From Bigelowiella natans CCMP2755 (Eukaryota > Protista > Cercozoa): 64,000 nucleotides of DNA. The stretch covers positions 25,150 through 89,149 of the forward strand of contig ADNK01001243.1 in the NCBI GenBank assembly GCA_000320545.1, in the 5' to 3' direction. The position numbers and the translations under genes were made by a program. Positions 13,903 to 54,899 of the stretch are shown here, piece by piece. Numbering within the stretch: position 1 is the stretch's first letter; each line of letters starts with the position of its first letter. A model generated the notes under the pieces. The model saw only the letters and a program-made list of their open reading frames with translations. It did no database searches and had not been told where the DNA came from.

Positions 13903-14810
13903 CAGCAGAGAATGGACCATACCCCACATTTGATTTCCCATCTGCCGTCAGTAGGGGAATGACACAAAATTTTCATTTCAAAAATTCACCTACTGACGAC
14001 CTACTGCTGAACTGAATTGCTAGAATGACATGGCAAAATTGCACGAGCATGACATGTCAAGTACTCCACAATTGATTTCCCATCAGCAATCAGTAGCAAA
14101 ATGTGCGAAAATGCGCAACATGAAAGCTTTGCCTACTGACGACCTGCTGCTGAACTGAATTGCTAGAATGACATGATGAAAATGTTCTACCCATGTGTTT
14201 TGTGAAAACAATCTTTGTTAAAAATGACATAGCAAAATCCACAGCAGAGCATCGTTAAAAACACTGTAACTTTATTATCACCTAAAACAATAAATGAGAT
14301 ATTCAAATCAAAAATGGGAAAACCATTGGACAAATGGCTGACGGAAGAACAATTTAGATCTTATTTGAAGAACAAAAGATTTTTGTATGTGATATCATCA
14401 AGCAACATGGACACATACAAAAGGAAATCTACTGAAGAACTTGTCATCAAGTTCGGCCAAGGCAAGGGAACTCAACCAGCATCAAGATTAAAAGATTACA
14501 TATCATGTCATGGGTACACTGACTCCAAAAGACCTTGGATGGGTTGCAAATTACATTACTTGCTCATCACGTACTGAAAAGAGCAAAAAAGTAGCAGCTA
14601 TAAACGTTCTATGGTTCATAAGATGAACTAAAATTAAAACAGTATGCGCTAGAAAAAACAACTTGTTAGTAGACAGAGGCGATGAAAGAATATTAATAAG
14701 GTTGAGTAAATTGATGAGCATATTAGATTATGAACAATTCAAAAAACTTACAGACATTGAGTCAAAACCTACATGCAATCTACGAAACAAAAAGCAGAAA
14801 TACATCGTTG
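13903..14810 (+). repeat. Left inverted repeat (TIR-like), homology stops abruptly at 14810
   Basis: Reverse complement of 34792-35687 with ~19 substitutions and several 1-4 bp indels (hand alignment). Confidence 0.95.
14294..14810 (+). pseudogene. Frameshifted, truncated copy of the TIR-encoded ORF 34484-35296
   Basis: Fragments MGKPLDKWLTEEQFRS... and LLVDRGDERILIRLSKLM... match the right-hand ORF but are broken by indels. Confidence 0.9.
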
Positions 14811-14825
14811 CAAGTCGATCGCAGC

Positions 14826-18351: not shown

Positions 18352-21300
18352 TCAAATCCCAAGATGGACAAGGTCCTCAACACTCACCTTATCTTCAAAT
18401 TCAACATCCTGAGGGGTGTATTCACCAAATGCTGGATATGTTTGTTGGTTATTTCTACTAAGATTACACTCCACACAAGTTAATCTACAGTTGTTCCAGA
18501 GATGGGGTAGATCATTATCAATTCTATCCACAGAAACATTATCAGCAGTAAATCCACATCTACACACAGGACATTGTGGATGATTATTAACAGTTCTTTT
18601 TATCCATTCCTCATCAATATATTCTTTATCTTTCCAAGTTCTACCAGCTCTTTTGTCCTGAGATTTATATGAAGATACTTTCATTCGTAGTTTTTGAGTG
18701 ATCATACTTTCCTTTAATCTGTAGCATTCTTTATCGCTGTGCTGATATATTTGTATCTGTGAAAGGTCAGTTGAACGAGTTATAGCAGTCCAGAGCCACT
18801 TGCGATTAATTCTACAGGTGTTAGTATCGAATACGGTAATGGGGCCATCTACTGATAATCCTTGAAAACTATGACAGGTAGAGGCATATGATAATCTAAA
18901 ATGCTTACTAATTAATTCTATAGGAATTCTTATTTCTTCCATATCACATACATCCTGTATTACAAATTCTTTTTTACTTACTTTAACAACTTCATAAGCA
19001 TAGTTCACATATAGTTTTGGTTTCTTATTATATTTTTTACACACAATCTCCATACCAGCATAGTAGCAAATACCATCTACATAAACCTTTTTTCTCGGTT
19101 TCTTTTGTAGGCTATGGATATGCTTTCCTACTGAACGGGATCTAAAGTTGTAGAAGGTAATATTGTTGAGAGTTCTAACTTCACTTATACTTTTCACAAC
19201 TTTAAAATATTTTTTTAGCACATCAAATGGTTTAGTTTTTACATCAAATATTTCTTGTTTTAATTGTACAAGAGTATTTCTTTCCTCGTCTGTTTTTACT
19301 CTCTTACAGATTTTCAATGTAATTTGATTTGGAAACATGCTATTTAAAGCTTCAGTTGTTCTAACATCAAGGTCTTTGATGTTATTAAACAGATATTCGT
19401 TTTCAATGGGATCCAATTGAGCTAAATCACCAGTAGCAATAAATTTTTTATCAGTATGCTTATCCATAAATAACTTAATTTTTGATAGTTGATGTAGTGA
19501 ATACATATAAACCTCATCAAAGCACATAACATCATATGGTGAAATATCAAATTTTCTTATGTATTTACATTCGTTGTTATGAATGTTAAGGCTAAATAAT
19601 CTATGATAAGTAATAGCATCGTGTCCGCTCTCACGAATATTTTGGCATAATTTATTGAACGGTGCTACAAATAGTATTTTCTTTCCTTTGTATTTTTTAA
19701 CTGAATAACTCTTACCACTACCAGGTAATAAAGCATTCACAAGAGTTCTATCATATTTATCAAATACATTTGTGATTTCTTCTGTGTCCCATTCATTTTT
19801 TATGTCAATCTTATTAATGTTAATTAATTTAGGTTCTACCAGTTCATTTTCTTCAGGAATAAAATAATTACCGGCAACTTTAGTCCCTTTTTCTAATTTC
19901 ACACCACCAATATCTTTATTAAAATCAAAATGAGGTATAATTTTATGAACCTTATCAGATACAATAATACAATCAGTTTTAATAGCTATAGGATGTAATC
20001 CTACTGATACACATTTATCATATAAATTACACATTTTGATACTTACCATATCATATATCATATCTTTAATAGGTTTGAAGGTCTCTCTTACAAGTTTTTT
20101 AGTTGTTCTTACAAGTAAAAATAAATCATCATTCATAGGATTAATTTCACCACCATATAATTTCTTATAATGATTTGCTTCATTCAAATTTTTATAAATT
20201 TTACATACTGATTTATGATTGTATTTCTTCTCAAGCATTCCTGTAATTTTATTACATATGAATTTGTTAGCATTGATGGTTCCAAGTTCTGTTTCATACA
20301 GTTTATCAACTGCTTTACTAAATTTAACAGTAGCAATATTAGAAGGTCTAATGTAGTATAGTATATCGTAACTATTTTTATTCATTTGTTTTAATTTAAA
20401 TCCATATACTCTGTTGCATCTTTTAGGTAATAAGATATTATGAGCTTCACCTCCATCTAAACTCATCACAACATACATTGCAAGGTCTTCAATAGAATGA
20501 TCATCATATTTAACATAATTATCAAAATAATGAAAAATAGGAATTTGAGAGATTGATTTTAAAGCCCAAGTGTAACATTTATTAACATCAATACCATTTC
20601 CAATAGCATCATCACTTAGTCTTCCTACAGCAGGTCCTTTAGAATGTGCTTCATTCATTCTTAATGCTTCATCATTGAAAATGCTTATGTGTTCTTTCTT
20701 AATAATTTTTTGATAGAAGTCATCATCTGCTTTCACAAAATTTTCATAGTTATTTTCATTTACATCATAAGTAACAATGTCATTCATGTTGTTGTAATCT
20801 GGATGTGAAATAATACAGTACTTATTGCTAATTTTAAATGATAATGACAGCATTCTGTTGTGTTGAAAGAAAATTTTAGGTTCGTATTTATGAACATTGA
20901 TCATTTCAATTAACAATTCTCTCACATCCCCATGATAAAAATATTTGATATTTTCATCATTCACTGTTTTAATATGAGATACGATATCATTGAGGTTTTT
21001 AATAAATTTGAAACAATTACTTTTTTCTTCATCTATTGATCTAAATTTGTATTTGTCATAAACCTGTAATGAACATTCATTGCATTCTACCTCTTTTTTT
21101 TTCTGTTCTAGTTCTTTGATTTGGTGATTGAGCAAATAAGCATGATTATTGTGAATCATAATTCTAAAATTTCGTGGTGATGTGTGCTTGTTGTGTTCAT
21201 CAGGTGTAAATTTATCAACTAAATTATACATGTCATCGTAAACGGTTAGCCCTAATTCATATTTCTCAAAAAACTTTTTAATCTCTGCTAATTTGATAGC

Positions 21301-22173
21301 ATCATCCCTTTTTTTTTCTTTTTTTCCTACAATATTACAAAGAGCATTACAAGTAAGATTTTTATATCTGGATTTTTCAAATGATTTTTCATATGAGTTC
21401 ATAATGGCATTAAACATGCAGGAATTTTCTCTGTTGTATTTTTTAGGTTGATGGAACAGATCACCAAAAGTTTTAGCATCTTTGTTAATTTCATATTTGA
21501 GGTATTTGTAATTCATAGCCACATTGTTATCATCATCTTTCACCACAATTTGACTGACATCATAATCACTTGATGATTTAGAATCACAAGACCCATCATG
21601 AATGATTTTGATGTAATCACTATGTTCAAATGAAGGGTTATTCATTTCCTCAGCCATGTTTTGGTTTCTCATTGACACTCCACAAATTTGTCTATCAAGT
21701 GATTTTGATTTGATTTTAACAAATCTACCAATAGCATTTCTAAATGCTTGAGTAGTTTTTTTCAAAACCACACCATTAACAGTCATCACATTTGCTAATC
21801 TCAGTCCTTTGTGATTGAATTCATTAACAGCATGTTTTCTTTCTTCATCTACCCTGCGATGAACAAAAATTGTATAACTTGTATTAGTTCCACCACAAAT
21901 TGTGCGATGTGTTTTTTTCAGTTGGCTTTCGTTGAGGTTTCTAAAAGAATTAAGACTGCTATTCACAACTTCAAAAGGTGATCCTTTAACATTTAATTTG
22001 TTGCAAGTTCTACCACCAATCTTAACTAATCGGTTGGTGTTAATGTTGCATCCATAACCATTTTTCATCTCTTTGTTTTCAATTTTAGTAAAAAGCTTTT
22101 GTAAGTTCTTTTTTTGAAGAGAACTAAACTTTCTAAATTTTTTCAAAAAACTTTTCATTATGTTATTAGACAC
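18352..22173 (-). CDS. Family-B DNA polymerase core + superfamily 1 helicase + C-terminal HNH-like fusion (1273 aa)
   Basis: PolB-like motifs GIDVNKCYT, KFICNKITG, AIKTDCI. SF1 motifs LPGSGKS, CFDEVY, GDLAQLDPI, YASTCHSFQG, WTAITRS. C-terminal CPVC...SVDRIDNDLPHLWNNCRLTCVECN. Start is GTG. Confidence 0.88.
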   Translation of the reverse strand: MSNNIMKSFLKKFRKFSSLQKKNLQKLFTKIENKEMKNGYGCNINTNRLVKIGGRTCNKLNVKGSPFEVVNSSLNSFRNLNESQLKKTHRTICGGTNTSYTIFVHRRVDEERKHAVNEFNHKGLRLANVMTVNGVVLKKTTQAFRNAIGRFVKIKSKSLDRQICGVSMRNQNMAEEMNNPSFEHSDYIKIIHDGSCDSKSSSDYDVSQIVVKDDDNNVAMNYKYLKYEINKDAKTFGDLFHQPKKYNRENSCMFNAIMNSYEKSFEKSRYKNLTCNALCNIVGKKEKKRDDAIKLAEIKKFFEKYELGLTVYDDMYNLVDKFTPDEHNKHTSPRNFRIMIHNNHAYLLNHQIKELEQKKKEVECNECSLQVYDKYKFRSIDEEKSNCFKFIKNLNDIVSHIKTVNDENIKYFYHGDVRELLIEMINVHKYEPKIFFQHNRMLSLSFKISNKYCIISHPDYNNMNDIVTYDVNENNYENFVKADDDFYQKIIKKEHISIFNDEALRMNEAHSKGPAVGRLSDDAIGNGIDVNKCYTWALKSISQIPIFHYFDNYVKYDDHSIEDLAMYVVMSLDGGEAHNILLPKRCNRVYGFKLKQMNKNSYDILYYIRPSNIATVKFSKAVDKLYETELGTINANKFICNKITGMLEKKYNHKSVCKIYKNLNEANHYKKLYGGEINPMNDDLFLLVRTTKKLVRETFKPIKDMIYDMVSIKMCNLYDKCVSVGLHPIAIKTDCIIVSDKVHKIIPHFDFNKDIGGVKLEKGTKVAGNYFIPEENELVEPKLININKIDIKNEWDTEEITNVFDKYDRTLVNALLPGSGKSYSVKKYKGKKILFVAPFNKLCQNIRESGHDAITYHRLFSLNIHNNECKYIRKFDISPYDVMCFDEVYMYSLHQLSKIKLFMDKHTDKKFIATGDLAQLDPIENEYLFNNIKDLDVRTTEALNSMFPNQITLKICKRVKTDEERNTLVQLKQEIFDVKTKPFDVLKKYFKVVKSISEVRTLNNITFYNFRSRSVGKHIHSLQKKPRKKVYVDGICYYAGMEIVCKKYNKKPKLYVNYAYEVVKVSKKEFVIQDVCDMEEIRIPIELISKHFRLSYASTCHSFQGLSVDGPITVFDTNTCRINRKWLWTAITRSTDLSQIQIYQHSDKECYRLKESMITQKLRMKVSSYKSQDKRAGRTWKDKEYIDEEWIKRTVNNHPQCPVCRCGFTADNVSVDRIDNDLPHLWNNCRLTCVECNLSRNNQQTYPAFGEYTPQDVEFEDKVSVEDLVHLGI

Positions 22174-22304
22174 ATTGTTATTACAGATTAGATTTCTTTA
22201 AGTGAGAATTAAACGAATGAAAATTTAAAAAAAAACTGTAGTTTTTTTGAGAGTTTTGAAACGAACATAAAATGGTTTAAAAAGAAAAAATCCATAGCAT
22301 TACA

Positions 22305-22622
22305 ATGAGCGAAAATAATAAAATATTTAAATCCAAAACTTCAGAATATGTGAAAGAATACTACAAAAAGAACTCTCAAAAATGGCTACGAAAGGTAGAA
22401 TGTGAAGCCTGTAATTGCATGATTGGATTAGCATCACTATCTCGACACAAAAGAACTAAAAAACACATGCTTAATAGCAATCCTAATCCATCCGAAGAGC
22501 AGAAAAAATTTGTAGATGACAATGAATGTGTCAAGTTCAGAAAATGCAAATTAGTCAAATTAGAAGAAAAACTAGATTTTGTCATGAAGAAATTAGAAGA
22601 GTTAGGAAACAAAACACAATGA
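22305..22622 (+). CDS. Viral zinc-finger protein
   Basis: KEYYKKN...VECEACNCMIGLASLSRHKRTKKH motif, typical of giant-virus/PLV small Zn-finger proteins. Confidence 0.7.
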   Translation: MSENNKIFKSKTSEYVKEYYKKNSQKWLRKVECEACNCMIGLASLSRHKRTKKHMLNSNPNPSEEQKKFVDDNECVKFRKCKLVKLEEKLDFVMKKLEELGNKTQ

Positions 22623-22681
22623 ATGTGTTTTCATGATCATCACAATTACTGTTGTGATTATGAGATGATATTATGAACAAG

Positions 22682-22936
22682 TTAAATGTTGATAGTTTTT
22701 GTTTCATGACCATTGTCATGGTTGTTGTGACTGTCAACATCCTTAAATCCATCACACCAAGATGGTTTGTCATGTTGTTCTTTTTCTTCAACATCTGGTT
22801 TGGCAAGACCAAGTTTAATCAACATGTCTCTATTTTGTCCCTTACAATTATCAATGTTCTTCACAAATGCTTCTACAGATTTGTCACTAACTTTAGGTTT
22901 TGTTGGAACTTTTTCATCCTCATCAGTGTTACTCAT
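22682..22936 (-). CDS. Viral hypothetical protein (84 aa)
   Basis: ATG-start ORF tiling the gene-dense viral region. Confidence 0.45.
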   Translation of the reverse strand: MSNTDEDEKVPTKPKVSDKSVEAFVKNIDNCKGQNRDMLIKLGLAKPDVEEKEQHDKPSWCDGFKDVDSHNNHDNGHETKTINI

Positions 22937-23202
22937 TGTGACACAACTACATGTTTTGTAATAATTTCAAACGAACATTGATCAAATGATACTGTTACAC
23001 CATCAACTTTTTTAGGAACCTTTGGAATTTCTTTTTTCTTCTTTTCCTCCTGTTTTATTTTTGGTTTACGAACATCCTCAAAACATTTCTCATTGTGTTT
23101 ACTCATCTTCTCCTTTTTTTCTTGACACCTTTTCTTTTGGTAAGCAATTACTTTGTCTCTGTTCAACTTGCAACATGCCTTTTGCTTTTCTTTGTCAGAC
23201 AT
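22933..23202 (-). CDS. Viral basic hypothetical protein (89 aa)
   Basis: KQKACCKLNRDKVIAYQKKRCQEKKEK, probably an ancestral KAYY..RY motif; TCTA motif 14 nt upstream. Confidence 0.6.
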   Translation of the reverse strand: MSDKEKQKACCKLNRDKVIAYQKKRCQEKKEKMSKHNEKCFEDVRKPKIKQEEKKKKEIPKVPKKVDGVTVSFDQCSFEIITKHVVVSQ

Positions 23203-23261
23203 TTGTTGAAATAGTTTAGATTTTTACATCTAAAAAAAAATGATCTCAACTCAATTGATGC

Positions 23262-24494
23262 ATGAGTAAGTTAAGAGAAACAGAAAAAAGGTTCACACGA
23301 CAGTGGAACAATTATTTTCCATTGATAGAAGAAAATAAAAATGGAGACAAAGTTCCAAGTAAAGTCAATGTTAATCATCTTCTTTGGATGATTTACAACA
23401 AAGACTCCATTGGAGGTGATAGAAAACTTGTGGTGAGAAAACTCAATACTGAGGTAATTAATCCAATTACAGGAACAAGATTGCATTTGTCGAACATGGA
23501 AAAGTCTTTAATCACACATGCTAATGACAACGGATTTAACATTAGTAATCCAACAGAAGATTTAAGAACACCACCAAGAGCACAAACACCGCCAAAAATG
23601 ATGAGAACACCAGCACCACCATCATCTAGAACACCATTGCCAAGAGGACCACCACCGCCACCACCAAGAAGACCACTACCAAGAAGACCACTACCAGGAG
23701 GACCACCAGTAGGACCAGTATTTGGAGGACCAGCACCAGCACCAGGAAATGGACAACAACAGATAGCACAAGAAGCAAAACTACCAGCATTAGCAAGATC
23801 ATCTGGTCGCAATGTTCCAACACAAGCAACACCATCACAAAGATTTAATCAACAACCAGGATTTAGTTTGACACCAGTAGTTCCTACAACAGCACCTGCT
23901 GGATTTAAATCAACACCAGACGACATGGGTAAGAAAAAATTAACAGATTTATCTTTGAAAGAAATAAAAGAATACAATGATTTTCAGAGACCGCTACCTG
24001 AAATTTTAGAAAGACAAAATACAATTTGTCAGACCAAGACAAGGCAAGGGTCAATTCAAGAAGCAAGTCATCCATTTGGAGGTAAATGTGATGTAACTAA
24101 TGAATCACAAATTAATTGTAACACTAATTCTAAAAACCCATTCATCAAATCTCAAGCACGATTAAAGGTGAAAGAAATAGATGACACAAGTAAAATTTAC
24201 AGACCTCAATTACAAGAAGCAATCGATGATGCTAAACCATCTGCTAAATTAATAGCAAAGATGGCTAACATGGAAGCACTCAAAGTTGAAGTTCCAGTTG
24301 AACCACCATTCAAAGCAAGAGGTTTTGATCCAAAAGAATTACGACCGGTATTTAAAATTAATTACACTCACGGTGTCGTGCCTCAATTTGTGAGTGAGAG
24401 ATGCAAGAAGAAAAAGGCAGAAGTAGCTGATGTTCACACTACTTACATCAAATCAAAACAAATGAAAGATGCAAGTGATCTGTTTTTTCAATGA
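23262..24494 (+). CDS. Viral proline-rich hypothetical protein (410 aa)
   Basis: Long intronless ORF with a central Pro/Arg-rich tract. Confidence 0.75.
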   Translation: MSKLRETEKRFTRQWNNYFPLIEENKNGDKVPSKVNVNHLLWMIYNKDSIGGDRKLVVRKLNTEVINPITGTRLHLSNMEKSLITHANDNGFNISNPTEDLRTPPRAQTPPKMMRTPAPPSSRTPLPRGPPPPPPRRPLPRRPLPGGPPVGPVFGGPAPAPGNGQQQIAQEAKLPALARSSGRNVPTQATPSQRFNQQPGFSLTPVVPTTAPAGFKSTPDDMGKKKLTDLSLKEIKEYNDFQRPLPEILERQNTICQTKTRQGSIQEASHPFGGKCDVTNESQINCNTNSKNPFIKSQARLKVKEIDDTSKIYRPQLQEAIDDAKPSAKLIAKMANMEALKVEVPVEPPFKARGFDPKELRPVFKINYTHGVVPQFVSERCKKKKAEVADVHTTYIKSKQMKDASDLFFQ

Positions 24495-24537
24495 TCATCG
24501 TTTTGTTGTAATTATTATTTCTATTACAATTGTGATA

Positions 24538-25278
24538 ATGACTAAAAAAGCATGTAAAAAATTAGATGTAAAACCCATATTAAAAAATAAATCTAAACAG
24601 ATGCACAATGATTACGGCTTGATTCCATCTTTTCCTAACAGATGCTTGTTCATAGCTCCTACTGGATCAGGTAAAAGTGTTGTGATAGTAAATTTATTAA
24701 CTCGTAAAAGATGTTTAAGAAACTTTTTTGATGTTGTTTCATTTTACTCTCCTAATGTGAATTACGAAGAAGAACACATAGAAACAAAAATAAAAAATGA
24801 AAAAGCAGAAATGAAGTTTGAAGAAAAGTTCAAAGAGAAAGAGTTTGGTGCTATGGTTCACAAATTAATGAAAGAGCAAAAAGAACTAAAAGACAAAAAG
24901 AAACCTATGAAAAAAACATTAATAACAATTGATGATTTCGCATCTGATGAAAAAGTGATGAAGAGCAAAACATTAAAAGATTTGTTCTTTGCTGGTAGAA
25001 AATGTGGTACATGTGTTTGGATTACCAGTCAGCATTACAAAATAGTTCAACCAGATGTTAGAACTAATGCGGAGCATCTCATCATGTTCAGTAGGCAACC
25101 CTCGAGTGAATTGAAAAAGATAGCTGAAGAAATGTCAATAGGTAAATACACCAAGAAAAAAATTATAGAAATGTTTGATGAAATGTCTACTACAGATTAT
25201 TCATTTTTACATTATGATCGTAAGCAACCAATGAATGAAAGATACATGATGAACTTTGAAAGTTTTATGAACATCTAA
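24538..25278 (+). CDS. A32-like (FtsK/HerA) genome-packaging ATPase
   Basis: Walker A FIAPTGSGKS, Walker B ITIDDF, GRKCG..VWITSQHYK and PDVRTNAEHLIMF; likely start ATG 24538 after a TCTA motif. Confidence 0.93.
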   Translation: MTKKACKKLDVKPILKNKSKQMHNDYGLIPSFPNRCLFIAPTGSGKSVVIVNLLTRKRCLRNFFDVVSFYSPNVNYEEEHIETKIKNEKAEMKFEEKFKEKEFGAMVHKLMKEQKELKDKKKPMKKTLITIDDFASDEKVMKSKTLKDLFFAGRKCGTCVWITSQHYKIVQPDVRTNAEHLIMFSRQPSSELKKIAEEMSIGKYTKKKIIEMFDEMSTTDYSFLHYDRKQPMNERYMMNFESFMNI

Positions 25279-25289
25279 ACATGGTCAAC

Positions 25290-25640
25290 ATGGATGAACT
25301 TTTACCAGAATTACATTTAAAAAAATCAGGGTCAAATCACAATCATTTGACAGTCGTCCAAAAAAAATTAGTAAATCCTTTTTTGTGTTTAAAAAAACCA
25401 ACTGTAATGCCTGATTCTCGTTTTTTTATGAGAAAAGAACTACCTGTAAGCATCAAACGAACATTTAAAAGGTGTCAAATGTCAATTAATTATTGTCTAA
25501 ATGATGATGATAACATGTGGGAAATGACAATTCTTCACCACCAAAACCAAAACCAATTCACTTTCACAAGCCACATTTTCCAAAACCAAAACCAATTCAC
25601 ATTCCAAGAATTCCTACAGAAAAAGCAACTAAGCCTATAG
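25290..25640 (+). CDS. Viral hypothetical protein; 3' part probably read-through into the next gene
   Basis: ATG at 25290 lies 12 nt after TCTA; the ORF overlaps 25517-26080 out of frame. Confidence 0.4.
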   Translation: MDELLPELHLKKSGSNHNHLTVVQKKLVNPFLCLKKPTVMPDSRFFMRKELPVSIKRTFKRCQMSINYCLNDDDNMWEMTILHHQNQNQFTFTSHIFQNQNQFTFQEFLQKKQLSL

Positions 25641-26080
25641 ACAAAGGAACAAAAAAAGGAGCAAATCATGTTAAAAACAAACTAACACATCCCGTTACTA
25701 CTGCAAATGAAGCTAAACGAGCATCAAACAAATTGGATTCCATGTCTCACGGTAGTCTTGGTATTGTGTATCAAGGAGCTCAGATGGTGTTTCCAGAATT
25801 TGGATTAGCCGTTACATTAGCTACTGTAGCAGATGAAATGGCTCACAATGATGGTAAGTCATCTAAAAAAACATTAAAAAACATCTTGTTAAACAAGGCT
25901 ACAGGAGGTGCTCATGGTGATTATCAAAATCTTAGAACCATTGAAAAATCAGAGCTTGTGTCTAAAATGGAAAACAAATTCAATGTAGATTTACACGACT
26001 TACCAGATGTTGATAGGGCAATTCCAGTTTCAATTAATGGTAAAGTTTCTGTTGATGATGCTACTAAAAAGTTTGGATAA
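25517..26080 (+). CDS. Putative N-myristoylated virion protein
   Basis: MGNDNS N-terminus (start now GTG), duplicated PKPKPIH, hydrophobic segment AQMVFPEFGLAVTLATVA. Confidence 0.6.
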   Translation: MGNDNSSPPKPKPIHFHKPHFPKPKPIHIPRIPTEKATKPIDKGTKKGANHVKNKLTHPVTTANEAKRASNKLDSMSHGSLGIVYQGAQMVFPEFGLAVTLATVADEMAHNDGKSSKKTLKNILLNKATGGAHGDYQNLRTIEKSELVSKMENKFNVDLHDLPDVDRAIPVSINGKVSVDDATKKFG

Positions 26081-26084
26081 ATCA

Positions 26085-26447
26085 TCACTTTTTCTCATCT
26101 TCTTTGATTTTAGGAGATGGTAAAAATGTTCCAAGTGTTAGAATGACAACATTTAGAAATGCATTTCTTTCAGATGGGTTTCCTACTGTCATAACTTGAA
26201 TCACACTGAACATCAAAACACTAAATGTTACACCAGATTTTAGGAAAAACTCTAAAGCCCTTTTGTCAGAAGTTGAACAACAAGACTGGTAAGCATTGAT
26301 GTATTTTTCATCCTCTAATTCTTTTCTGTGTATGACCTCTTCTATTATTTTATCTTTGCATTCTTTAGTGTTACTAATGTTCATAACAGTGTCTTTTTGT
26401 TGTTTTTCGTCTACTTTGTGTTCAATCGATTGTGGAATTATCATCAT
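26085..26447 (-). CDS. Small two-TM viral membrane protein
   Basis: SCC..DKRALEFF followed by two hydrophobic helices ending LGTFLPSP. Confidence 0.7.
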   Translation of the reverse strand: MMIIPQSIEHKVDEKQQKDTVMNISNTKECKDKIIEEVIHRKELEDEKYINAYQSCCSTSDKRALEFFLKSGVTFSVLMFSVIQVMTVGNPSERNAFLNVVILTLGTFLPSPKIKEDEKK

Positions 26448-26500
26448 AAATAGTCATGAATGAAATGCCATAATAATTTTTTTCTGTTCTTGTGATGACA

Positions 26501-27394
26501 ATGGGATCATTTGACAAGATAAAAGATGGATTCAAAAAAGCTGCAAATGATGTAAAAAAAACATCAGGGCATGTAACAAGACAAATCAAAAAAGATTTTG
26601 CAAAAGCAGGAGATGCCATCAAAGATGCATCTATCATGGCAGGTGATGAAATTAAAAAAGGAGCCCATGAAGTTGGAGATCAACTAAAAAAACAAGAAGT
26701 CCAACAGGCACTCGCAGGGACTGGAATTGCTTTGGCTAATGTTGCTACAGGAGGGGCATTTGCTCCAGAATTAATGGTAGGTGGATTAGCAATTCAAGGT
26801 GCAATCGAAGCTGCTAATGCAAAATCTTTACCTTGTGATACCATGCTACAGGCAGGAACAGCACATGCTACTGGTGAAATAGATTTTAACAAAAGAGGTA
26901 AGGGAGTGTCAAGTTTTAGCGAAGGTATTTCTAATTTAAGAGAAGAAGGTATGAAACGATTTGATGGTGTTGAAGATGAACTAAGTGATGAAGCGATCAA
27001 GCGATGTGACAATGTCAAAAGAAAAGTGGAAAATAGATTAGGATTTGATCCAACACAAATGCAATCTACAGATGAAGCTACAGATTTATTAAAAGCACAA
27101 ATTGATAGGAATGGAAAATTAGAGCAACAGCTAATGGATTTAAGAAGTGGAAAAGCGTTAGAAAATTTAACAAATGAAGCAAAAAGTGAATTAAAAAAAG
27201 AAGTAAGTAGTCAAGGCAATAAAATACTAAATGATGTTTTAGGTAAAGTATCTCAAAAGAAAAGCAAAGTGAAAAAAGCCACAAAAAAAGTTGAGAAGAA
27301 GGTGAAATCTTCTAAACGTAAAATGGCTGATGTCATTAAAAAGATGAAACAAAATCAACAGAGATACAGAATGTCAAGTGGTATTATGAATTGA
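26501..27394 (+). CDS. Viral helical/coiled-coil protein with Gly/Ala-rich hydrophobic segment
   Basis: Long ORF immediately before the MCP; ALAGTGIALANVATGGAFAPELMVGGLAI; basic C-terminus. Confidence 0.7.
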   Translation: MGSFDKIKDGFKKAANDVKKTSGHVTRQIKKDFAKAGDAIKDASIMAGDEIKKGAHEVGDQLKKQEVQQALAGTGIALANVATGGAFAPELMVGGLAIQGAIEAANAKSLPCDTMLQAGTAHATGEIDFNKRGKGVSSFSEGISNLREEGMKRFDGVEDELSDEAIKRCDNVKRKVENRLGFDPTQMQSTDEATDLLKAQIDRNGKLEQQLMDLRSGKALENLTNEAKSELKKEVSSQGNKILNDVLGKVSQKKSKVKKATKKVEKKVKSSKRKMADVIKKMKQNQQRYRMSSGIMN

Positions 27395-27461
27395 AAAAAA
27401 AATGTTATGAAAAAATTATATTCGTTTTGATATGATTTTTTTTCATCTACACATTGTTAAC

Positions 27462-29129
27462 ATGGATGCAATTAGTAAAACTACCGATGTTAGTAGATTT
27501 CCAGAAATGGACTACAGTTTACCCCCTATGGATAAAATTTTTATTGATTCAGTCTCTCATTTTAGAGAAGAGATGAAAAATAGTAACAATGCTGAAAAAG
27601 CGAACACCAAAATGCGTTTTTTCATTCCAGCTCAACAAAGAGCAGTAGACCCATCTGAATTATATTTTCAATTAAATGTTGCTGCCAGAACAGCTGGAGA
27701 TGCTGATTTACCAGCGGTTGACCAATTAAGATTAAGACTTGCTGAAGGTGGAGTTCATTCTCTCTTTAGAGAGATGATTGTTAGAGATGGTAGAGGTAAT
27801 GTCATTGAAAAAATTAATAACTACAACCTTGTTACTAAAATTTTACAAGATGCTTTGTTAACTAAAGAAGTTAAAAATAATTCATTAAATGTGGAAGGTG
27901 TTTGCAATGACCAAGGATTGTTTAACACAGTTCATAGCAAATTTGATGTTACTGGCAACACCTTAGAATTAAAAGCACCTGTGGCTCAGGTCGTAGCTAA
28001 TACTCTTCCAGCAGGTGCGCTTAATTTTGGTGCTGCCAATGCTGCTCCTGTTGCTGCTGTGATCACTCCCGCTTCACCATCAAGAGTACTTGGTGTAGGA
28101 ACTCAATTCTTAACTCAACTAAGACCAGGTTCTGTTGTTAAATTTGATGGAAATAGTCACACAGTTGCTCATGTTGCATCTGATGCAGAATTTGTATCTG
28201 CTACTAACATTGCTGCTGATGCTGCTGCTGCTAACATTGTTGCTGGTAGAGATTTTGTTGAAGGATTACTTGAAACAGAAAGTCGTTACAAAAAATTCCA
28301 TCACGATAGACTTTTTACACCAGATGGAGCTGTTCATTGCTTCCAACCATGCTGCTCCGGATTTTTATCTCAAAACAAATACCTTCATCTTGATCATTGT
28401 GGTGGGTTAGAATTTGAATTTACTTTAGATAGCAATGCCATGATTTTCGATGACACTAACACAGCAGGTAATGCTAATATTTTCATTAAACAAGGCTATG
28501 TTCATTGCACTGCTCTTGAATTTTCACCAGTTGTTGAAGCTGCTCTTGCTAAAGCACATGTGAGAGGATCATCTATGAGTTTCCCTGTGTACCATGTAGT
28601 TAGTAGAACACAAAATGCTTCTACCTCTGTTTCTCAGGAATATCAAGAAAGTTTAGCAATTCTCAAAATGGTCAAAATTGTTAGTGGACCAACTGGGTTT
28701 GATGCAAATACTGGAGCATCATTTTTCTTTGAAGATCTAACCAGTGCTGAAAGAATTTGCTGGGAGATCAACAAACAAAGATTTACTGAGTGTGGCAATG
28801 ATGACATTTTACCTCAAGTTGTTTTTGTGAATGACAGAATTGGCAAAAATCTGTTAGGAGATTACAAACATGCTACAATTTCTTGTGGAGAATTCAAAGA
28901 AGCAGGTAAATCTGCTTTAATTTTCAACACCCAAAACCATGAAGAAGGTAATTACACAGGAGTTAACACCAACCGAGCAACTATGAGACTTAAAATTGAA
29001 GGAGGAGATGGTGCTGCTGGTGCTTTACAACCTGGAATTGCTAATGTAGGTAGACAAATCGATGTGTTAATGATGCACGAGCAATACATCATGTTAAAAG
29101 ATGGAGAAAGTATGACCGTGCGATCTTAG
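27462..29129 (+). CDS. Major capsid protein (double jelly-roll, PLV type)
   Basis: RFFIP...VDPSELYFQLNV, GGVHSLFREMIVRDGRGNVIEKINNYNLVTKIL and SGFLSQNKYLHL...GLEFEFTL follow the PLV MCP pattern; size and position next to mCP and ATPase fit. Confidence 0.85.
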   Translation: MDAISKTTDVSRFPEMDYSLPPMDKIFIDSVSHFREEMKNSNNAEKANTKMRFFIPAQQRAVDPSELYFQLNVAARTAGDADLPAVDQLRLRLAEGGVHSLFREMIVRDGRGNVIEKINNYNLVTKILQDALLTKEVKNNSLNVEGVCNDQGLFNTVHSKFDVTGNTLELKAPVAQVVANTLPAGALNFGAANAAPVAAVITPASPSRVLGVGTQFLTQLRPGSVVKFDGNSHTVAHVASDAEFVSATNIAADAAAANIVAGRDFVEGLLETESRYKKFHHDRLFTPDGAVHCFQPCCSGFLSQNKYLHLDHCGGLEFEFTLDSNAMIFDDTNTAGNANIFIKQGYVHCTALEFSPVVEAALAKAHVRGSSMSFPVYHVVSRTQNASTSVSQEYQESLAILKMVKIVSGPTGFDANTGASFFFEDLTSAERICWEINKQRFTECGNDDILPQVVFVNDRIGKNLLGDYKHATISCGEFKEAGKSALIFNTQNHEEGNYTGVNTNRATMRLKIEGGDGAAGALQPGIANVGRQIDVLMMHEQYIMLKDGESMTVRS

Positions 29130-29197
29130 ATTGTTTCATTGTTCTTAAATTCCACCAAAATTTATGTCATAAAAATTCATTTCTAACATGAATTAAT

Positions 29198-29914
29198 ATG
29201 AAACAACACAAAATTTATTTTAATAGCAAAGATGGAATTACTGGAACAACCAATGATTTAAATTATCAATTAAATAGTGCAATTGACAATGCATCTTCTA
29301 TTTCTATTACAAGAGTAAGATTTCCAATTACTTGTTACAATGTGTCAGCTAAAAATAACATTTTAGAAATTGAGAATAGTTCTGGAAACAAAACAAGTAT
29401 GGAATTAACAAAACAAAATTACAGTGCTACTGAATTAGTAACAGAATTACAAACTAAACTTTCAACTAATGCCTCATCAGTAGGAACTTTTACTCCTGTG
29501 CACAATGCTAAAACAGGAAAATTTAGTACAGGTTGTAGTGATAGTTTCAAAATAATTAAAAACGAATGCTCTAAATTTTTAGGTTACAATGACACTACAT
29601 CTCTCTCTGCATTACATGTAGCAGATAACATGAGTAATCTTTCGCCAAAACCTGTTTACATCCAAACTGATTTACAACTGGATGCAGAATTAGCAGGTCA
29701 ATTATCAAACATAGTTTATGAAGTTAGTGGCGATGTTTCTTTTGGAAGTATTTTGCATGATGATGAAAAACCAAGTGAAAGAGTAGAACTAATGAAAAAA
29801 AAGAATGTAAGCAACTTAAAATTTGCATTAGTAGATGGAGATGGAGATGAAATTGAAAATAATGGCATAGATTATTCTATGACAGTATCTTTGTTTTATC
29901 AGACTAAGGAATAA
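29198..29914 (+). CDS. Minor capsid (penton) protein
   Basis: IYFNSKDG..GT...ISITRVRFPITCYNVSAKNN and C-terminal FALVDGDGDEIENNGIDYSMTV follow the PLV/Polinton mCP pattern. Confidence 0.8.
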   Translation: MKQHKIYFNSKDGITGTTNDLNYQLNSAIDNASSISITRVRFPITCYNVSAKNNILEIENSSGNKTSMELTKQNYSATELVTELQTKLSTNASSVGTFTPVHNAKTGKFSTGCSDSFKIIKNECSKFLGYNDTTSLSALHVADNMSNLSPKPVYIQTDLQLDAELAGQLSNIVYEVSGDVSFGSILHDDEKPSERVELMKKKNVSNLKFALVDGDGDEIENNGIDYSMTVSLFYQTKE

Positions 29915-29945
29915 GAAAAAAAATATCTAATCATCATTAATAAAA

Positions 29946-31490
29946 ATGAGTGTTAGCATTACAGGTAAACTTGTTCCTAACCCTAATGTGTCTGGTGGAA
30001 CAAACAATGACAACAATTCTTCAGCAGGAGGTGTAGTTGGGATCACGAGCAATTCGAATGACATTAATTTTGATAAAGGAGTTTCTGTGAATGGTATAAA
30101 ATTTCAAAACACAGGAAACCAAAACGGACTTTTTATGGGTGTTGATTTGTCTGGTAATTCGTCTATGGAAATGGTCTCTCCAACAACCTACATTGATTTT
30201 GTACATCAATTAGGTTCTGATTATGCGAATCGCATTCTGTCAAAAAATGACGGTATTCACTTCACAGGGGATTTGCATGTGGGTATCATTAGACCTAATT
30301 GTACATCTTCAAGTACAATGACATCTACGAATGGAACTTTTAATGCTATTAATTTAGACGGTGTCCCTTTGAATCCAAGAAATTGTTTAGTTCACGGGAT
30401 TACATCTGACATTGTAAGTGGAAACATAAATTTTACTATAAATTCTAATTTTCAAGAAAAATTAACAACATTAGGTGATCATAATCTTTCAAATAAAATG
30501 ACAAACGATGCTACAAATGGTTTGATTATTAATGCTAATGATGTTAACAATGCAAGTGTTTCATTAACTAAAGTATCAAAGTTTTCTTCATCTGCATTAG
30601 GAAAAGAACCAAAAATAATTAACATTGATAATGATTTGCAATTGTCTAATCATTCAGGTGTGCCTTCAATGAGGTTCAAAGATGACACTGGTAATGTTCA
30701 AATTTTATGTAATGAATTAGAGGTAATAGATAACATGGGGCAGGTAAAATTAAAGATGTTAGAAAAAATGAATAACACAGAAAACAAACTTAATCCAATC
30801 ACTTTGTCATCTAATAACGAACATCAATTTTCAAGTTCCATTTTTGTAAATGGTTTGAGAAGCACAACACAACCTCATATCGATGGTATTTGTTTAGGAA
30901 AAGACATTCATAACAGTAGTAGTATTGACTTCGTTAGTCCAACATGCTACATTGATTTCGTTCATAACAATTTGGGAACAGATTATGCAAATCGGATTTT
31001 ATCAAACAATGATGGCATTCACATTGCAGGTGACATGCATGTGAATGATGCTAAAATTGCTGGAGATGTTACATTTCAAGGTTCATTGTTATCTAACACA
31101 ATAACAGATTTAACAAATAGATTAAATGCAATTGAAGCATTAGCTACAAGCAATAGCAACAACATTCAAAATGGATTTAGTAATGTGAATGTCCCCATCA
31201 TGAGAGTCATTAATAATTCATCTACTGTTGTTTTCTTTGAAAGTGGCAATCAGCCACCTTTTTATAATCCTCGTGTAGAAAGTGGTAAATCTACAGTTTT
31301 AGAATATGCTTCAAATGTTGTGTCATTAAATGTTCGTTCAAGTTCTCCATCACATAATGCTTTCAATCTTACAGCAGACAAAGCAGTTAGTATAAATTCT
31401 GGTTCTGATCCTAACATGCCAACTGGAGCTCAATATAGAGTCGAATTAAATGGTCAGAATTTTGTAACTTTTACTATTTCTAATCCATAA
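29946..31490 (+). CDS. Putative fibre/spike protein with an internal duplicated module
   Basis: Asn/Ser-rich beta protein with two copies of VSPTxYIDFVH..LGxDYANRILSxNDGIHxxGDxHV; follows the penton gene. Confidence 0.6.
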   Translation: MSVSITGKLVPNPNVSGGTNNDNNSSAGGVVGITSNSNDINFDKGVSVNGIKFQNTGNQNGLFMGVDLSGNSSMEMVSPTTYIDFVHQLGSDYANRILSKNDGIHFTGDLHVGIIRPNCTSSSTMTSTNGTFNAINLDGVPLNPRNCLVHGITSDIVSGNINFTINSNFQEKLTTLGDHNLSNKMTNDATNGLIINANDVNNASVSLTKVSKFSSSALGKEPKIINIDNDLQLSNHSGVPSMRFKDDTGNVQILCNELEVIDNMGQVKLKMLEKMNNTENKLNPITLSSNNEHQFSSSIFVNGLRSTTQPHIDGICLGKDIHNSSSIDFVSPTCYIDFVHNNLGTDYANRILSNNDGIHIAGDMHVNDAKIAGDVTFQGSLLSNTITDLTNRLNAIEALATSNSNNIQNGFSNVNVPIMRVINNSSTVVFFESGNQPPFYNPRVESGKSTVLEYASNVVSLNVRSSSPSHNAFNLTADKAVSINSGSDPNMPTGAQYRVELNGQNFVTFTISNP

Positions 31491-31540
31491 TAGTCTTTCG
31501 TTTAAAATTGAAAAAAAATATATAGTTATATCATAATCAT

Positions 31541-31990
31541 GTGGATAATGTTAGTAATGTTCGAGAAACTTTGAAAGGTTACAGAGTAACACAATTAAAA
31601 GAATTATGTCGTGAAGTAGGAATATCTCAATGTGCGAGAAACAAAAAAACTTTAATAGACAGATTGACACCCATGGTTCTAAAAAGTGCTGGGTGTGAAG
31701 TCGTTTCTATTGAAAAAGAAGAGGAGGTAAAAAAAGAAGCTAAAACAATCAAAAGAGTTCCAGTTAAAAATAGTGTCAAAAAGAAAGAAGAAAAAATTAG
31801 TCTTGAATCAAAAGAAGATAGCAATGATGAAAAAGTAAGTGTAGAAATAGAAGAAGATAGTAATGATGAAAGTTCAATAACTGAATCACCACAGGAAGAT
31901 CAAATTAATGTCAATCTTTCTAATGGAAGGAACAATAATTGTTTTATTAACTTTAGGTATATGTGTGATGATTGGATACATATTTGGTAG
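31541..31990 (+). CDS. Protein with Rho-N/SAP-like helix-extension-helix and acidic tail
   Basis: LKGYRVTQLKELCREVGISQCARNKKTLIDRL; GTG start; original stop possibly at 31901 (CAA). Confidence 0.6.
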   Translation: MDNVSNVRETLKGYRVTQLKELCREVGISQCARNKKTLIDRLTPMVLKSAGCEVVSIEKEEEVKKEAKTIKRVPVKNSVKKKEEKISLESKEDSNDEKVSVEIEEDSNDESSITESPQEDQINVNLSNGRNNNCFINFRYMCDDWIHIW

Positions 31991-32048
31991 AGTGTCGGCC
32001 TCAATTACTGATTTAGACCCCACTAACGATCACTTGATTACACATTAA
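31908..32048 (+). CDS. Small single-TM protein (not in ORF track)
   Basis: MSIFLMEGTIIVLLTLGICVMIGYIFGRVSASITDLDPTNDHLITH*, read by hand. Confidence 0.45.
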   Translation: MSIFLMEGTIIVLLTLGICVMIGYIFGRVSASITDLDPTNDHLITH

Positions 32049-32103
32049 AAAATTATTTTTTTTTGAAATTTTGTTTGTAAAAATTATCTAAATCTTTATA
32101 AAT

Positions 32104-32712
32104 GTGAGTTCTTCAACCGCAACTTTTAGAAATAATGTCCTCGTGGAAGGAACATTGAGTGGATTAACAATTACAAGAATCGACCAAGAGAAAACCCAAG
32201 TACTTAATAGTCTCAATCAACACATTACCGATTTCCAAGCAGAACAGACTGCTACTCAAACTGAAAGAGATGCTCTTTCAGCAGCATTAACTCAGGCTCA
32301 AACAGACACTACTAATGCAATTGCAGGAGTTCAGTTACAAATTGATGATAACAAGACAGACATAGAAGGAAAACTAGCAAATGAAGTCAATGCGAGACTT
32401 TCTCTCGCTTCAGAAGTGAGCACAAGAAATGCATTTGTGGATTCTGAAATTGTAAGGCTAGACCAACAACATGCTGACGATGATGCTAGATCAACAAATG
32501 CAGAAACTCGTTTGGACAACATTGATGTAGATTTACAAAATCAAATTGATAGTGCTGTAAATCAACTTAATATTAATCATCAAAATGTTGAACCAAGAAC
32601 AGCAAAGCTCGAGGAACATTTAGTGATCGATGAGTCTGACCCAGCAAACCCAGTCGTAAGCATTAAAGCAGGAGTGAAATTCGTTGTCACTGGTGATTTC
32701 GAACATGCTTAG
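32104..32712 (+). CDS. Coiled-coil viral protein (fibre/stalk-like)
   Basis: Heptad-rich 202-aa ORF; GTG start 13 nt after TCTA. Confidence 0.7.
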   Translation: MSSSTATFRNNVLVEGTLSGLTITRIDQEKTQVLNSLNQHITDFQAEQTATQTERDALSAALTQAQTDTTNAIAGVQLQIDDNKTDIEGKLANEVNARLSLASEVSTRNAFVDSEIVRLDQQHADDDARSTNAETRLDNIDVDLQNQIDSAVNQLNINHQNVEPRTAKLEEHLVIDESDPANPVVSIKAGVKFVVTGDFEHA

Positions 32713-32761
32713 ATTGCAAATGTGATTTAAATAACATGTAAAAATCTAACAATTAATGATA

Positions 32762-33004
32762 ATGTCTAATATTAAGGGTGGTGGTGCTATTTTCAAAGAA
32801 AGACCCACAATGTCAAATGATGTTGTAGGTCAAACAATGGATACTATTAATCAACAATTAAATGATAACAAGACCCAAAACACAGAAAATAAATTACAAC
32901 TTGATTTTTTAAAAGAAGTTTTTACAATAGACAAAGAAAACAAAACTGTTACGATGAATCCTGAATACAAACTCATCATTCCTAATGATTTAATTCAAGG
33001 ATAG
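32762..33004 (+). CDS. Small viral protein, C-terminus similar to the preceding ORF
   Basis: LKEVFTIDKENKTVTMNPEYKLIIPNDL vs LEEHLVIDESDPANPVVSIKAGVKFVVTGDF; TCTA upstream. Confidence 0.6.
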   Translation: MSNIKGGGAIFKERPTMSNDVVGQTMDTINQQLNDNKTQNTENKLQLDFLKEVFTIDKENKTVTMNPEYKLIIPNDLIQG

Positions 33005-33042
33005 TTCGTTTAAAATAGTATAGTTTTTTATAGTCATAAGTA

Positions 33043-33660
33043 ATGACTACAAAAAATGTTACGTTTTACAGAATTACATGTTTAACCACAAGAGAAACAT
33101 GTGTAGGTTCTACTACTATGGATCCAAAAGTGAGATTACAAATGCATGTTGCTAATTTTAGAGCATACAAGAAAGGTTTTGGTAATTGTTGTTCTTCCTT
33201 TCAAATCATAGAAAGAGATAATTACATGTTTCAAATAATTTCGGTAGTAGATGCTAAAAAAATATCGGTTCATCAGAAACGAAAGAAAGAAGCTGAACTG
33301 ATAGCAGAAGAGAAGACAAAAAGAAATTGTGTCAACAAAAATGTCCCAGGTAGAGATGTAAAACAATACAGAATAGATAATGGAGATTACATCAATGCCT
33401 ATGCGAGAGATTATTATCATGATGAAACGAAACACGACAAAATATATTGTTGCTTTTGTGACAGATTTGTGATCAAAAAACATTATGACAAACATATTCA
33501 TTGTAAAAAGCATATAAAAAATCTTCTCAAATTAAATAATGAAAATAAAAATACCAGCGAAAGTAAGCAAGAAAGCAAGATTAGCATTGAAATTGAAAAA
33601 ATTAGGTTGGAAAGGAATGACAGAGACAGGAATAAACAGAGCAAAGCAATTAGCACATGA
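33043..33660 (+). CDS. GIY-YIG endonuclease with C-terminal Zn finger (second motif Tyr changed to Cys)
   Basis: TFYRITC...ETCVGST...RLQMH...KEAELI...CVNKNVPGR, then CCFCDRFV..HYDKHIHCKKH. Confidence 0.8.
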   Translation: MTTKNVTFYRITCLTTRETCVGSTTMDPKVRLQMHVANFRAYKKGFGNCCSSFQIIERDNYMFQIISVVDAKKISVHQKRKKEAELIAEEKTKRNCVNKNVPGRDVKQYRIDNGDYINAYARDYYHDETKHDKIYCCFCDRFVIKKHYDKHIHCKKHIKNLLKLNNENKNTSESKQESKISIEIEKIRLERNDRDRNKQSKAIST

Positions 33661-34270: not shown

Positions 34271-34289
34271 AAAAATCTATAGTATTATA

Positions 34290-34448
34290 ATGGTATTGAA
34301 AAAATTAACCAAAAGACAGAAAGATTTGTTGACCGCTCACAGTAAGCATCATAGTAAAAAACATATGGCTTCTATGAGAATGAACCTAATGTTAGGTAAA
34401 ACTTTCAAAGAAGCCCACGAGATAGCAACTAAAAAGTATGGTAAGTAA
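34290..34448 (+). CDS. Small basic His-rich viral protein (52 aa, not in ORF track)
   Basis: MVLKKLTKRQKDLLTAHSKHHSKKHMASMRMNLMLGKTFKEAHEIATKKYGK*; TCTA 10 nt upstream. Confidence 0.7.
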   Translation: MVLKKLTKRQKDLLTAHSKHHSKKHMASMRMNLMLGKTFKEAHEIATKKYGK

Positions 34449-34483
34449 ATAATTTTTATTATTATTATCAATGACAATAAATC

Positions 34484-35296
34484 TTATTTATCTTCAAGTT
34501 TGATGTTTTTTTTGTCTTTTGAAATCTTGTAATATTTGCGGAACAATTTATCAAAATCATCTGATTTGAGACCAAGATATTTTATGTATTCATCTTGTAA
34601 TTTAATATTCTCTTTGTCATTTGAGTTTTTATAATATTTAAGAAACAATCTATCAAAATTCTTTGATTTAACATCATTAGGCAACACACATCTAATGGTG
34701 CCTTCAAGACTTCCATCACTATATTTCACTTTGAAGGTAGTAGGTTCTTGATGGTTATTTTTCTTTGCTTTGTTTGCATGGTCTAATATTTCAACGATGT
34801 ATTTCTGCTTTTTGTTTCGTAGATTGTATGTAGGTTTTGACTCAATGTCTGTAAGTTTTTTAAATTGTTTACAATTTAATATTCTCATCAATTTACTCAA
34901 CCTTATTAATATTCTTTCATCGCCTCTGTCTACTAACAAGTTGTTTTTTCTAGCATACTGTTTTAATTTTAGTTCATATTTATGAACCATAGAGTTTATA
35001 GCTGCTACTTTTTTGCTCTTTTCAGTGATGAATAAGTAATGTAATTTGCAACCCATCCAAGGTCTTTTGGAGTCAGTGTACCCATAATATGATATGTAAT
35101 CTTTTAATCTTGATGCTGGTTGAGTTCCCTTGCCTTGACCGAACTTGATGACAAGTTCTTCAGTGAATTTCCTTTTGTATGTGTCCATGTTTGATGATAT
35201 CACATACAAAAATCTTTTGTTCTTCAAAGATCTAAATTGTTCTTCCGTCAGCCATTTGTCCAATGGTTTTCCCATTTTTGATTTGAATATTCTCAT
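34484..35296 (-). CDS. TIR-associated protein: T5orf172/GIY-YIG-like N-terminus, possible chromo-like segment
   Basis: FLYVI...VIKFG.....SRLKDY...E.KLK pattern, then KYIVEILDH...FKVKYSDG. Confidence 0.55.
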   Translation of the reverse strand: MRIFKSKMGKPLDKWLTEEQFRSLKNKRFLYVISSNMDTYKRKFTEELVIKFGQGKGTQPASRLKDYISYYGYTDSKRPWMGCKLHYLFITEKSKKVAAINSMVHKYELKLKQYARKNNLLVDRGDERILIRLSKLMRILNCKQFKKLTDIESKPTYNLRNKKQKYIVEILDHANKAKKNNHQEPTTFKVKYSDGSLEGTIRCVLPNDVKSKNFDRLFLKYYKNSNDKENIKLQDEYIKYLGLKSDDFDKLFRKYYKISKDKKNIKLEDK

Positions 35297-35687
35297 TTAT
35301 TATTTTAGGTGAGAATAAATTTACAGTGTTTTTAACGATGCTCTGCTGTGGATTTTGCCATGTCATTTTTAACAAAGATTGTTTTCACAAAACACATGGG
35401 TGGAACATTTTCATCATGTCATTCTAGCAATTCAGTTCAGCAGCAGGTCGTCAGTAGGCAAAGCTTTCATGTTGCGCATTTTCGCACATTTTGCTACTGA
35501 TTGCTGATGGGAAATCAATTGTGGAGTACTTGACATGTCATGCTCGTGCAATTTTGCCATGTCATTCTAGCAATTCAGTTCAGCAGTAGGTCGTCAGTAG
35601 GTGAATTTTTGAAATGAAAATTTTGTGTCATTCCCCTACTGACGGCAGATGGGAAATCAAATGTGGGGTGTGGTCCATTCTCTGCTG
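34792..35687 (-). repeat. Right inverted repeat (TIR-like)
   Basis: Reverse complement of 13903-14810; contains two ~143-bp sub-repeats and the 5' part of ORF 34484-35296. Confidence 0.95.
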
Positions 35688-48921: not shown

Positions 48922-51610
<2,689 letters not shown>

Positions 51611-54860: not shown

Positions 54861-54899
54861 ATCAAAACCACTGCACATGCTTGGTGGTAGGATTCAGGG

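Follow-up and report, generated by a model that had tools for sequence, protein, structure and literature searches.

A 64,000-nucleotide (nt) stretch of the Bigelowiella natans CCMP2755 genome (contig ADNK01001243.1, positions 25,150 to 89,149; here the window) carries an integrated virus-like element whose start and stop codons appear to have been struck by a mutator acting on TpA dinucleotides. Three genes with GTG directly after a T in place of a start (at 25517, 31541 and 32104), together with a CAA codon at 31901, were very probably made by host TpA>TpG/CpA hypermutation that hits starts and stops as ordinary targets (Table 1). The mutator itself is known: TpA>TpG/CpA hypermutation of integrated viral DNA in B. 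natans has already been described in a preprint, the main text of which reports its rate and spectrum in one nucleocytoplasmic large DNA virus (NCLDV) and one virophage region, no clear TpA depletion in 197 genes of viral origin, and, as a hypothesis only, an ADAT2/3-like adenosine deaminase as the agent (bioRxiv 10.64898/2026.01.13.699255).

The element and its sister copies bear a strong TpA-specific signature of A>G and T>C changes. The closest proteins overall are B. natans gene models (77-91% identical), and for the predicted major capsid protein BLASTP returned B. natans proteins at 83-91% identity and environmental ones at 62-65%. Compared with four environmental relatives at positions where these mostly agree, the capsid protein has 50 differences, comprising 26 single-step TpA>TpG/CpA changes, one GC>AT change, no other AT>GC change, eight transversions and 15 multi-step changes; 26 of the 27 single-step transitions are thus of the TpA type. 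The same protein has 22 conserved Tyr columns; three, with Phe in each of the four B. natans-type copies, were excluded. Among the remaining 19, Tyr has become Cys or His at 10 in the window and at five in the sister model P0001, and the corresponding counts are 17/17 in both P0002 and P0003; columns of Phe, Asp and Trp show no difference among the B. natans-type copies apart from gaps. At the DNA level, 26 of 33 transitions relative to sister copies are of TpA type (among 40 displayed of 412 differences), and 18% of A/T bases lie in TpA; between the two repeat arms of the element, 12 of 17 transitions fall at TpA. In a second comparison with sister copies, of which the first 22 of 40 displayed rows were classified (93 more lie beyond those displayed), CA in one copy faces TG in another at four TpA sites, evidence of independent hits on the same dinucleotide. 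Sister copies range from lightly hit to saturated, and some have also lost starts and stops.

Several further observations concern the mutator. Among the public sequences compared, X1 and X14 are DNA contigs from one sample, and X1 and X11 represent two samples; the X15 contigs are guessed to be RNA on the strength of GT..AG joints that the DNA runs lack. For some B. natans lines the preprint describes continuing de novo mutation at a very high rate. At 23765, in a TA context, G occurs only in X1/X14, and the window and X15 have A; this copy may have been newly hit in one sample, or a filtered contig may account for the difference. On the host side of the element, positions 52001-55000 are repeat-like, nearly free of TpA and rich in spurious open reading frames (ORFs) on both strands, with a TpA observed/expected ratio of 0.14 and a CpA/TpG ratio of 1.68 over 52001-54000; this region is likely an element mutated to saturation, and a 90-nt piece of it (53640-53735) matches 14989-15209. 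In the protein P0033, labelled Norrisiella sphaerica, Tyr and Leu are retained at positions occupied by His and Ser in P0032 and the B. natans-type copies; Norrisiella may lack the mutator, or the P0033 copy may be young.

Start and stop codons of the element

An earlier note on this DNA had listed GTG codons at 22173 (minus strand), 25517, 31541 and 32104, each preceded by T and three of them near a TCTA motif. All four are present, each in the context ATGTG, and TCTA lies 15 nt (22173), 17 nt (25517) and 13 nt (32104) upstream; ATG genes of the element have TCTA spacings of 12, 12, 12, 14, 14 and 16 nt. The gene at 31541 has no TCTA, carrying AAAATTGA at 31504 instead. The preceding T was set aside as evidence by itself, given a base rate of 45%: T precedes 168 of the 376 GTG triplets in the element, and four out of four gives p ~0.04. 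A fifth T-GTG ORF start, at 26492, was rejected as a real start on account of in-frame ATGs at 26495 and 26501. Upstream of the 26501 gene (26483-26501), TCTG stands in place of TCTA, and the mutator may erode this promoter motif too.

The proposal that start codons were destroyed holds for 25517, 31541 and 32104, the relatives of which begin with Met, and fails for the helicase as a case of gene loss. The helicase has an in-frame ATG at 22158, the sixth codon of the GTG ORF, preceded at 8 nt by a TCTA of its own, and is therefore not inactivated by the GTG at 22173; the Atlas entry of the protein likewise begins at residue 6 of that ORF. The GTG was possibly once an ATG, since its TCTA spacing is the more typical (15 versus 8 nt), with only five residues at stake and little consequence.

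For the 25517 gene, four of eight non-self matches start M-G-N at the GTG codon (P0025, P0026, P0029 and P0031), two of them B. natans sister models that begin M-G-N-D-N-S-S and two of them environmental relatives; another two (P0032 and P0033) are spliced chimeras. The gene model of this very copy, P0028 (EukProt), has 112 residues and begins at Met76. A start of the form M-G-x-x-x-S resembles a myristoylation signal. Relatives of the 31541 gene have Met in register in four of four cases, P0038 (82% identical) beginning M-D-N-V-S-N; the next in-frame Met of the window's gene, codon 45, lies beyond the SAP domain, and P0038 has Ile at this position. Met stands at the aligned N-terminus in 16 of 17 relatives of the 32104 gene, two of which are 73-74% identical and also 202 residues long; the exception, the B. 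natans model P0021, starts at an internal Met, a position with Ile in close relatives. In a related X1 contig, C followed by ATG lies in register with the window's T followed by GTG. Comparison with relatives thus yielded Met in register for all three genes and evidence of the ATG itself for two, through sister gene models at 25517 and a sister contig at 32104. Relatives were also sought together with their flanks: viral contigs gave no usable loci and a single 24% match to the ATPase, and metagenome contigs gave one of 1066 nt, with a match starting at residue 29, past the start.

Loss is not confined to one copy, nor are starts singled out. The likely minor capsid gene at 29198 retains T-ATG in the window and has Val in the sister model P0002. 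The 20 inferred starts of the element comprise 11 AATG, four TGTG, three CATG and two TATG; special targeting of start codons was rejected, as these counts fit the general hit rate of ~50% per TpA at Tyr codons.

Stops are affected as well. The CAA at 31901 had been taken in the earlier note as a lost stop through which the frame runs into the next ORF. It is likely a lost stop, judging from the end of P0038 and from P0040, which ends about two residues before this position; the fusion does not follow, as read-through adds 29 residues and reaches a TAG at 31988-31990, 113 nt before the next ORF. Sister contigs become indel-rich at 31889-31920. The CAA at 24489 is possibly a former tandem stop: CAA-TGA ends three of the seven TGA-ending ORFs, an excess noticed post hoc (p ~7e-4 from the frequency of CAA codons). 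The 25290 ORF contains a further candidate, and its middle part has counterparts in P0032 and P0033. Sister models offer direct parallels: two successive stops of the window appear as Gln in P0003, and in P0002 two stops have likewise become Gln and the minor-capsid Met has become Val, yielding a fused model; the capsid stop is Gln in both.

Consequences for the genes and rival explanations

Codon enumeration across all contexts shows that no sense codon becomes a stop through TpA>TpG/CpA, which bears out the expectation that reading frames stay open under the mutator; TAA becomes CAA or TGA, TAG becomes CAG or TGG, and 14 kinds of missense change arise, among them Met>Val, Ile>Met and Tyr>Cys/His. 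The activity of such a mutator on the element, also expected, is borne out by the capsid, sister-copy and repeat-arm transitions. A hit on T-ATG would yield either C-ATG, with the start kept and the target gone, or T-GTG, with the start lost. The resulting ATGTG leaves an out-of-frame ATG two bases upstream, opening frames of 41, 11 and 1 codons at 25517, 31541 and 32104 respectively, and host ribosomes, in scanning, would pass over the GTG for the most part. The 32104 gene would then give little or no protein, the 25517 protein would lose its first 75 residues and the 31541 protein its SAP domain. Combined with missense changes in the capsid, start loss would likely leave this copy not making particles by itself. 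The agent might be the ADAT2/3-like DNA adenosine deaminase put forward, hypothetically, in the preprint alone. Genes would accordingly be disabled through start loss, read-through and missense changes with their frames left open, the missense load probably being as important as start loss, and the element would be dead. The earlier suggestion that such a provirus looks intact to annotation applies to gene callers that accept GTG and not to the eukaryotic gene model P0028, truncated to 112 residues.

This copy is transcribed: X15 contigs match it with 0 differences, and one of them covers both 31541 and 32104 while skipping an intron-like segment; X15 also contains a transcript of a less mutated sister. 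From ~6% of the raw RNA run X22 came 29 and 4 reads, too few to be of use. About 10 GT..AG skips occur in X15 inside viral ORFs (23413-25776 and 31724-31955) and are absent from the DNA runs; they likely reflect cryptic splicing by the host. The proteins P0032 and P0033 join 25290-like and 25517-like genes in frame, which points to similar splicing and a related element in another chlorarachniophyte transcriptome. Rescue of the 25517 gene by the X15 splice (~25471 to 25776) was considered and rejected, the joint being out of frame in the window copy.

Some findings weigh against loss of starts and stops by the mutator. The helicase GTG causes no loss of function, and the copy is still transcribed. 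The proteins P0027 and P0030 have different, longer N-termini than the 25517 gene. For 31541, an ATG codon was not seen in the DNA compared: two sister contigs cover the site and display no G>A among the 40 rows shown (93 others lie beyond these), and one or both may share the GTG. In the other comparison, the 40 displayed of 412 differences hold no row for 25517, 22173, 24489 or 25476. Metagenome gene callers write Met for GTG starts, and a Met at the protein level therefore does not prove an ATG. At the 31901 position P0041 runs on, and P0039 is too short to tell. Finally, the classification of capsid differences chose the TpA route wherever one existed.

Some of these points would favour native non-AUG starts of the virus family, GTG never having been ATG: Met in predicted proteins may stand for GTG, no A appears at 31541 among the rows shown despite the two covering contigs, and T before GTG is common. 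This is nonetheless improbable, given the in-register ATG of the related contig at 32104, the two B. natans sister models starting M-G-N-D-N-S-S at 25517, where the window's own model jumps to Met76, and the Met>Val change of a sister copy at the minor capsid start, still ATG in the window. Slippage duplicating the TG of an original ATG would account for ATGTG at all four sites without any A>G change; it is highly improbable, as six bases precede the ATG of the related contig, in register with the six that precede GTG in the window, no insertion or deletion row falls at the GTG sites among those displayed, and the AT before ATG is intact at 29198. Sequencing or assembly errors, to which the many small insertions in the left repeat arm relative to the right might point, can be practically dismissed: at 24489, 25517, 31541, 31901 and 32104 they are refuted by independent public contigs. 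The X1/X14 DNA contigs show 0 differences from the window over 24275-24651 and 25092-25547, as do the X1/X11 DNA contigs over pieces covering 31541, 31901 and 32104; position 25517 lies ~30 nt from the end of its matching piece, and 22173 falls outside the pieces displayed.

A larger share of doubt attaches to the possibility, itself compatible with a mutator origin, that the changes were made by the mutator and are of little effect, either because GUG initiation, leaky scanning or supply by less mutated copies keeps the proteins available or because they are neutral decay of an element already disabled. Transcription of this copy together with a less mutated sister in X15, the lightly changed P0001 (only five of 19 conserved Tyr) and, for prior disablement, the missing integrase and protease matches and the disrupted-looking left part of the element speak for it. 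Against it stand the out-of-frame ATG overlapping each GTG, the 202 codons of the 32104 gene without an in-frame Met, and the 26 TpA-type missense changes in the capsid. It is accordingly regarded as rather unlikely, and mutator-made loss of starts and stops is preferred.

The element and its setting

The element is embedded in eukaryotic DNA as an AT-rich, gene-dense block at ~18.3-35.3 kb (27-38% GC per kb), with ~30% GC overall and ~40% GC in the surrounding host DNA. No target-site duplication was seen at the boundaries of its inverted repeats. In the left arm, the 5' portion of the 34484-35296 ORF recurs with a frameshift, and compared with the right arm the left one carries many small insertions; the left part of the element as a whole appears disrupted. 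This part also holds ~10 units of 179 nt (16322-18144) with exon-like pieces that translate to ankyrin-like repeats. Over 18352-35300, the four-base palindromes CTAG (14 versus 91 expected) and GTAC (22 versus 82) are far scarcer than expected, which is not the case in the flanks. Further along the host DNA, 48900-51610 is an intron-rich host gene for a Rio2 kinase (Rio2_N, E 3.8e-8).

Table 1. Positions in the window of the GTG and CAA codons discussed and of the main features of the element.
Feature	Position	Strand	Remarks
Terminal inverted repeat, left arm	13903..14813		95.9% identical to 34789-35687 in reverse
Helicase, superfamily 1 (SF1), 1268 residues	18352..22158	-	Pfam AAA_30, Viral_helicase1, UvrD_C_2
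T-GTG upstream of helicase	22171..22173	-	five codons before helicase ATG
CAA TGA end of the 23262 ORF	24489..24494	+	at most one extra residue
A32-type DNA packaging ATPase	24538..25278	+	Pfam Pox_A32, E 1.9e-11; TCTA 14 nt upstream
Small ORF	25290..25640	+	crosses TCTA; overlaps next gene by 124 nt
Candidate lost stop, CAA	25476-25478	+	within the 25290 ORF
187-codon gene, GTG for start	25517..26080	+	relatives begin M-G-N; next in-frame Met is codon 76
Predicted major capsid protein, 555 residues	27462..29129	+	Atlas capsid-like clusters 0.96-0.97 (viral and NCLDV)
Likely minor capsid gene	29198..29914	+	weak DUF5901 match, E 5e-4, below cut-off
SAP-domain gene, GTG for start	31541..31990	+	SAP at residues 11-43, below Pfam cut-off
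CAA where closest relative stops	31901..31903	+	P0038 (82%, 124 residues) ends one codon before
Conserved 202-codon gene, GTG for start	32104..32712	+	no in-frame Met anywhere
Terminal inverted repeat, right arm	34789..35687		arms ~0.9 kb; element spans 13903-35687, ~22 kb

The gene content is viral. The helicase is likely fused to a polymerase-like N-terminal part, in which we assume polymerase motifs, and to an HNH C-terminal part. The predicted capsid protein matches no Pfam family and no PDB sequence; its structure models are poor (predicted local distance difference test scores of 38 and 42), too poor for a firm fold assignment, and Foldseek searches with them gave weak rows to a Tetraselmis viridis virus S1 protein, the Sputnik capsid and D13. 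The ORFs at 33043-33660 and 34484-35296 have no Pfam match and presumably carry GIY-YIG-like N-termini, the former with Cys where the motif usually has Tyr. Two genes without TCTA share an upstream motif starting TTCGTTTAAAAT (31497-31530 and 33005-33038); its first copy contains AAAATTGA, the mimivirus early promoter motif.

TCTA motifs stand upstream of many element genes and resemble the late promoter of mavirus and Cafeteria roenbergensis virus (CroV) (PMC8547959). The element is closer to a Polinton-like virus than to a virophage. Its length of ~22 kb (range 15-40 kb), terminal inverted repeats and A32 ATPase agree with the account of Polinton-like viruses in PMC7805220 and of B. natans provirophages (PMC5127031, PMC6905037, PMC8547959); the double jelly-roll major capsid and the minor capsid of Polinton-like viruses may correspond to its capsid-like gene and likely minor capsid gene. 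Virophages (Lavidaviridae) carry a gene for a capsid-maturation cysteine protease; among the 19 element ORFs scanned with Pfam alone, in an element that may be incomplete, no protease and no integrase family was matched.

Known systems and biological meaning

Fungal repeat-induced point mutation (RIP) and APOBEC3 editing change C to T, commonly creating premature stops. Both are host-directed, dinucleotide-specific transition systems that disable foreign or repeated DNA, according to the preprint's main text (bioRxiv 10.64898/2026.01.13.699255), and the changes in the element are like them in being dinucleotide-specific transitions that would disable foreign DNA. They are unlike RIP in direction: RIP proceeds by C>T and raises TpA, whereas the element shows one GC>AT change against 26 AT>GC changes of the TpA type, and the mutator removes starts and stops and cannot create a stop. 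As judged from the preprint's main text, the hypermutation described there involves the same change, the same kind of target (viral inserts) and likely the same host; the present analysis differs in that unmutated relatives polarise the changes, gene-level damage is followed up to saturation, and the family has multiple copies. The main text of that preprint, supplements aside, does not contain 'start codon', 'stop codon', 'nonsense', 'non-synonymous' or 'inactivat', and an effect of the mutator on start or stop codons was not found in print, where the preprint was the only work found to cover this mutator.

The analysis therefore supplies gene-level evidence of what a mutator already known does to viral genes, a matter not treated in the preprint's main text: starts lost, a stop lost and half of the conserved capsid Tyr codons changed. 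Polarising against free relatives offers a sensitive test in a case in which counts of TpA in bulk had failed. Predicted proteins rich in Cys/His and devoid of Tyr, and also fused gene models, are in this family products of the mutator, and open frames and transcription are no sign of an intact endogenous virus in this lineage. This bears on the idea, set out in PMC5127031, that 'highly transcribed' B. natans provirophages serve as defence. More tentatively, and with somewhat less than even confidence, the chlorarachniophyte TpA mutator may be a mirror image of RIP that silences endogenous viruses at translation without stops, by start erasure, out-of-frame ATGs, read-through fusions and Tyr loss from structural proteins; transcribed, seemingly intact viral inserts of this lineage with open frames, including those proposed as defence against giant viruses, would then be mostly dead, and the mutation load of each would date its insertion.

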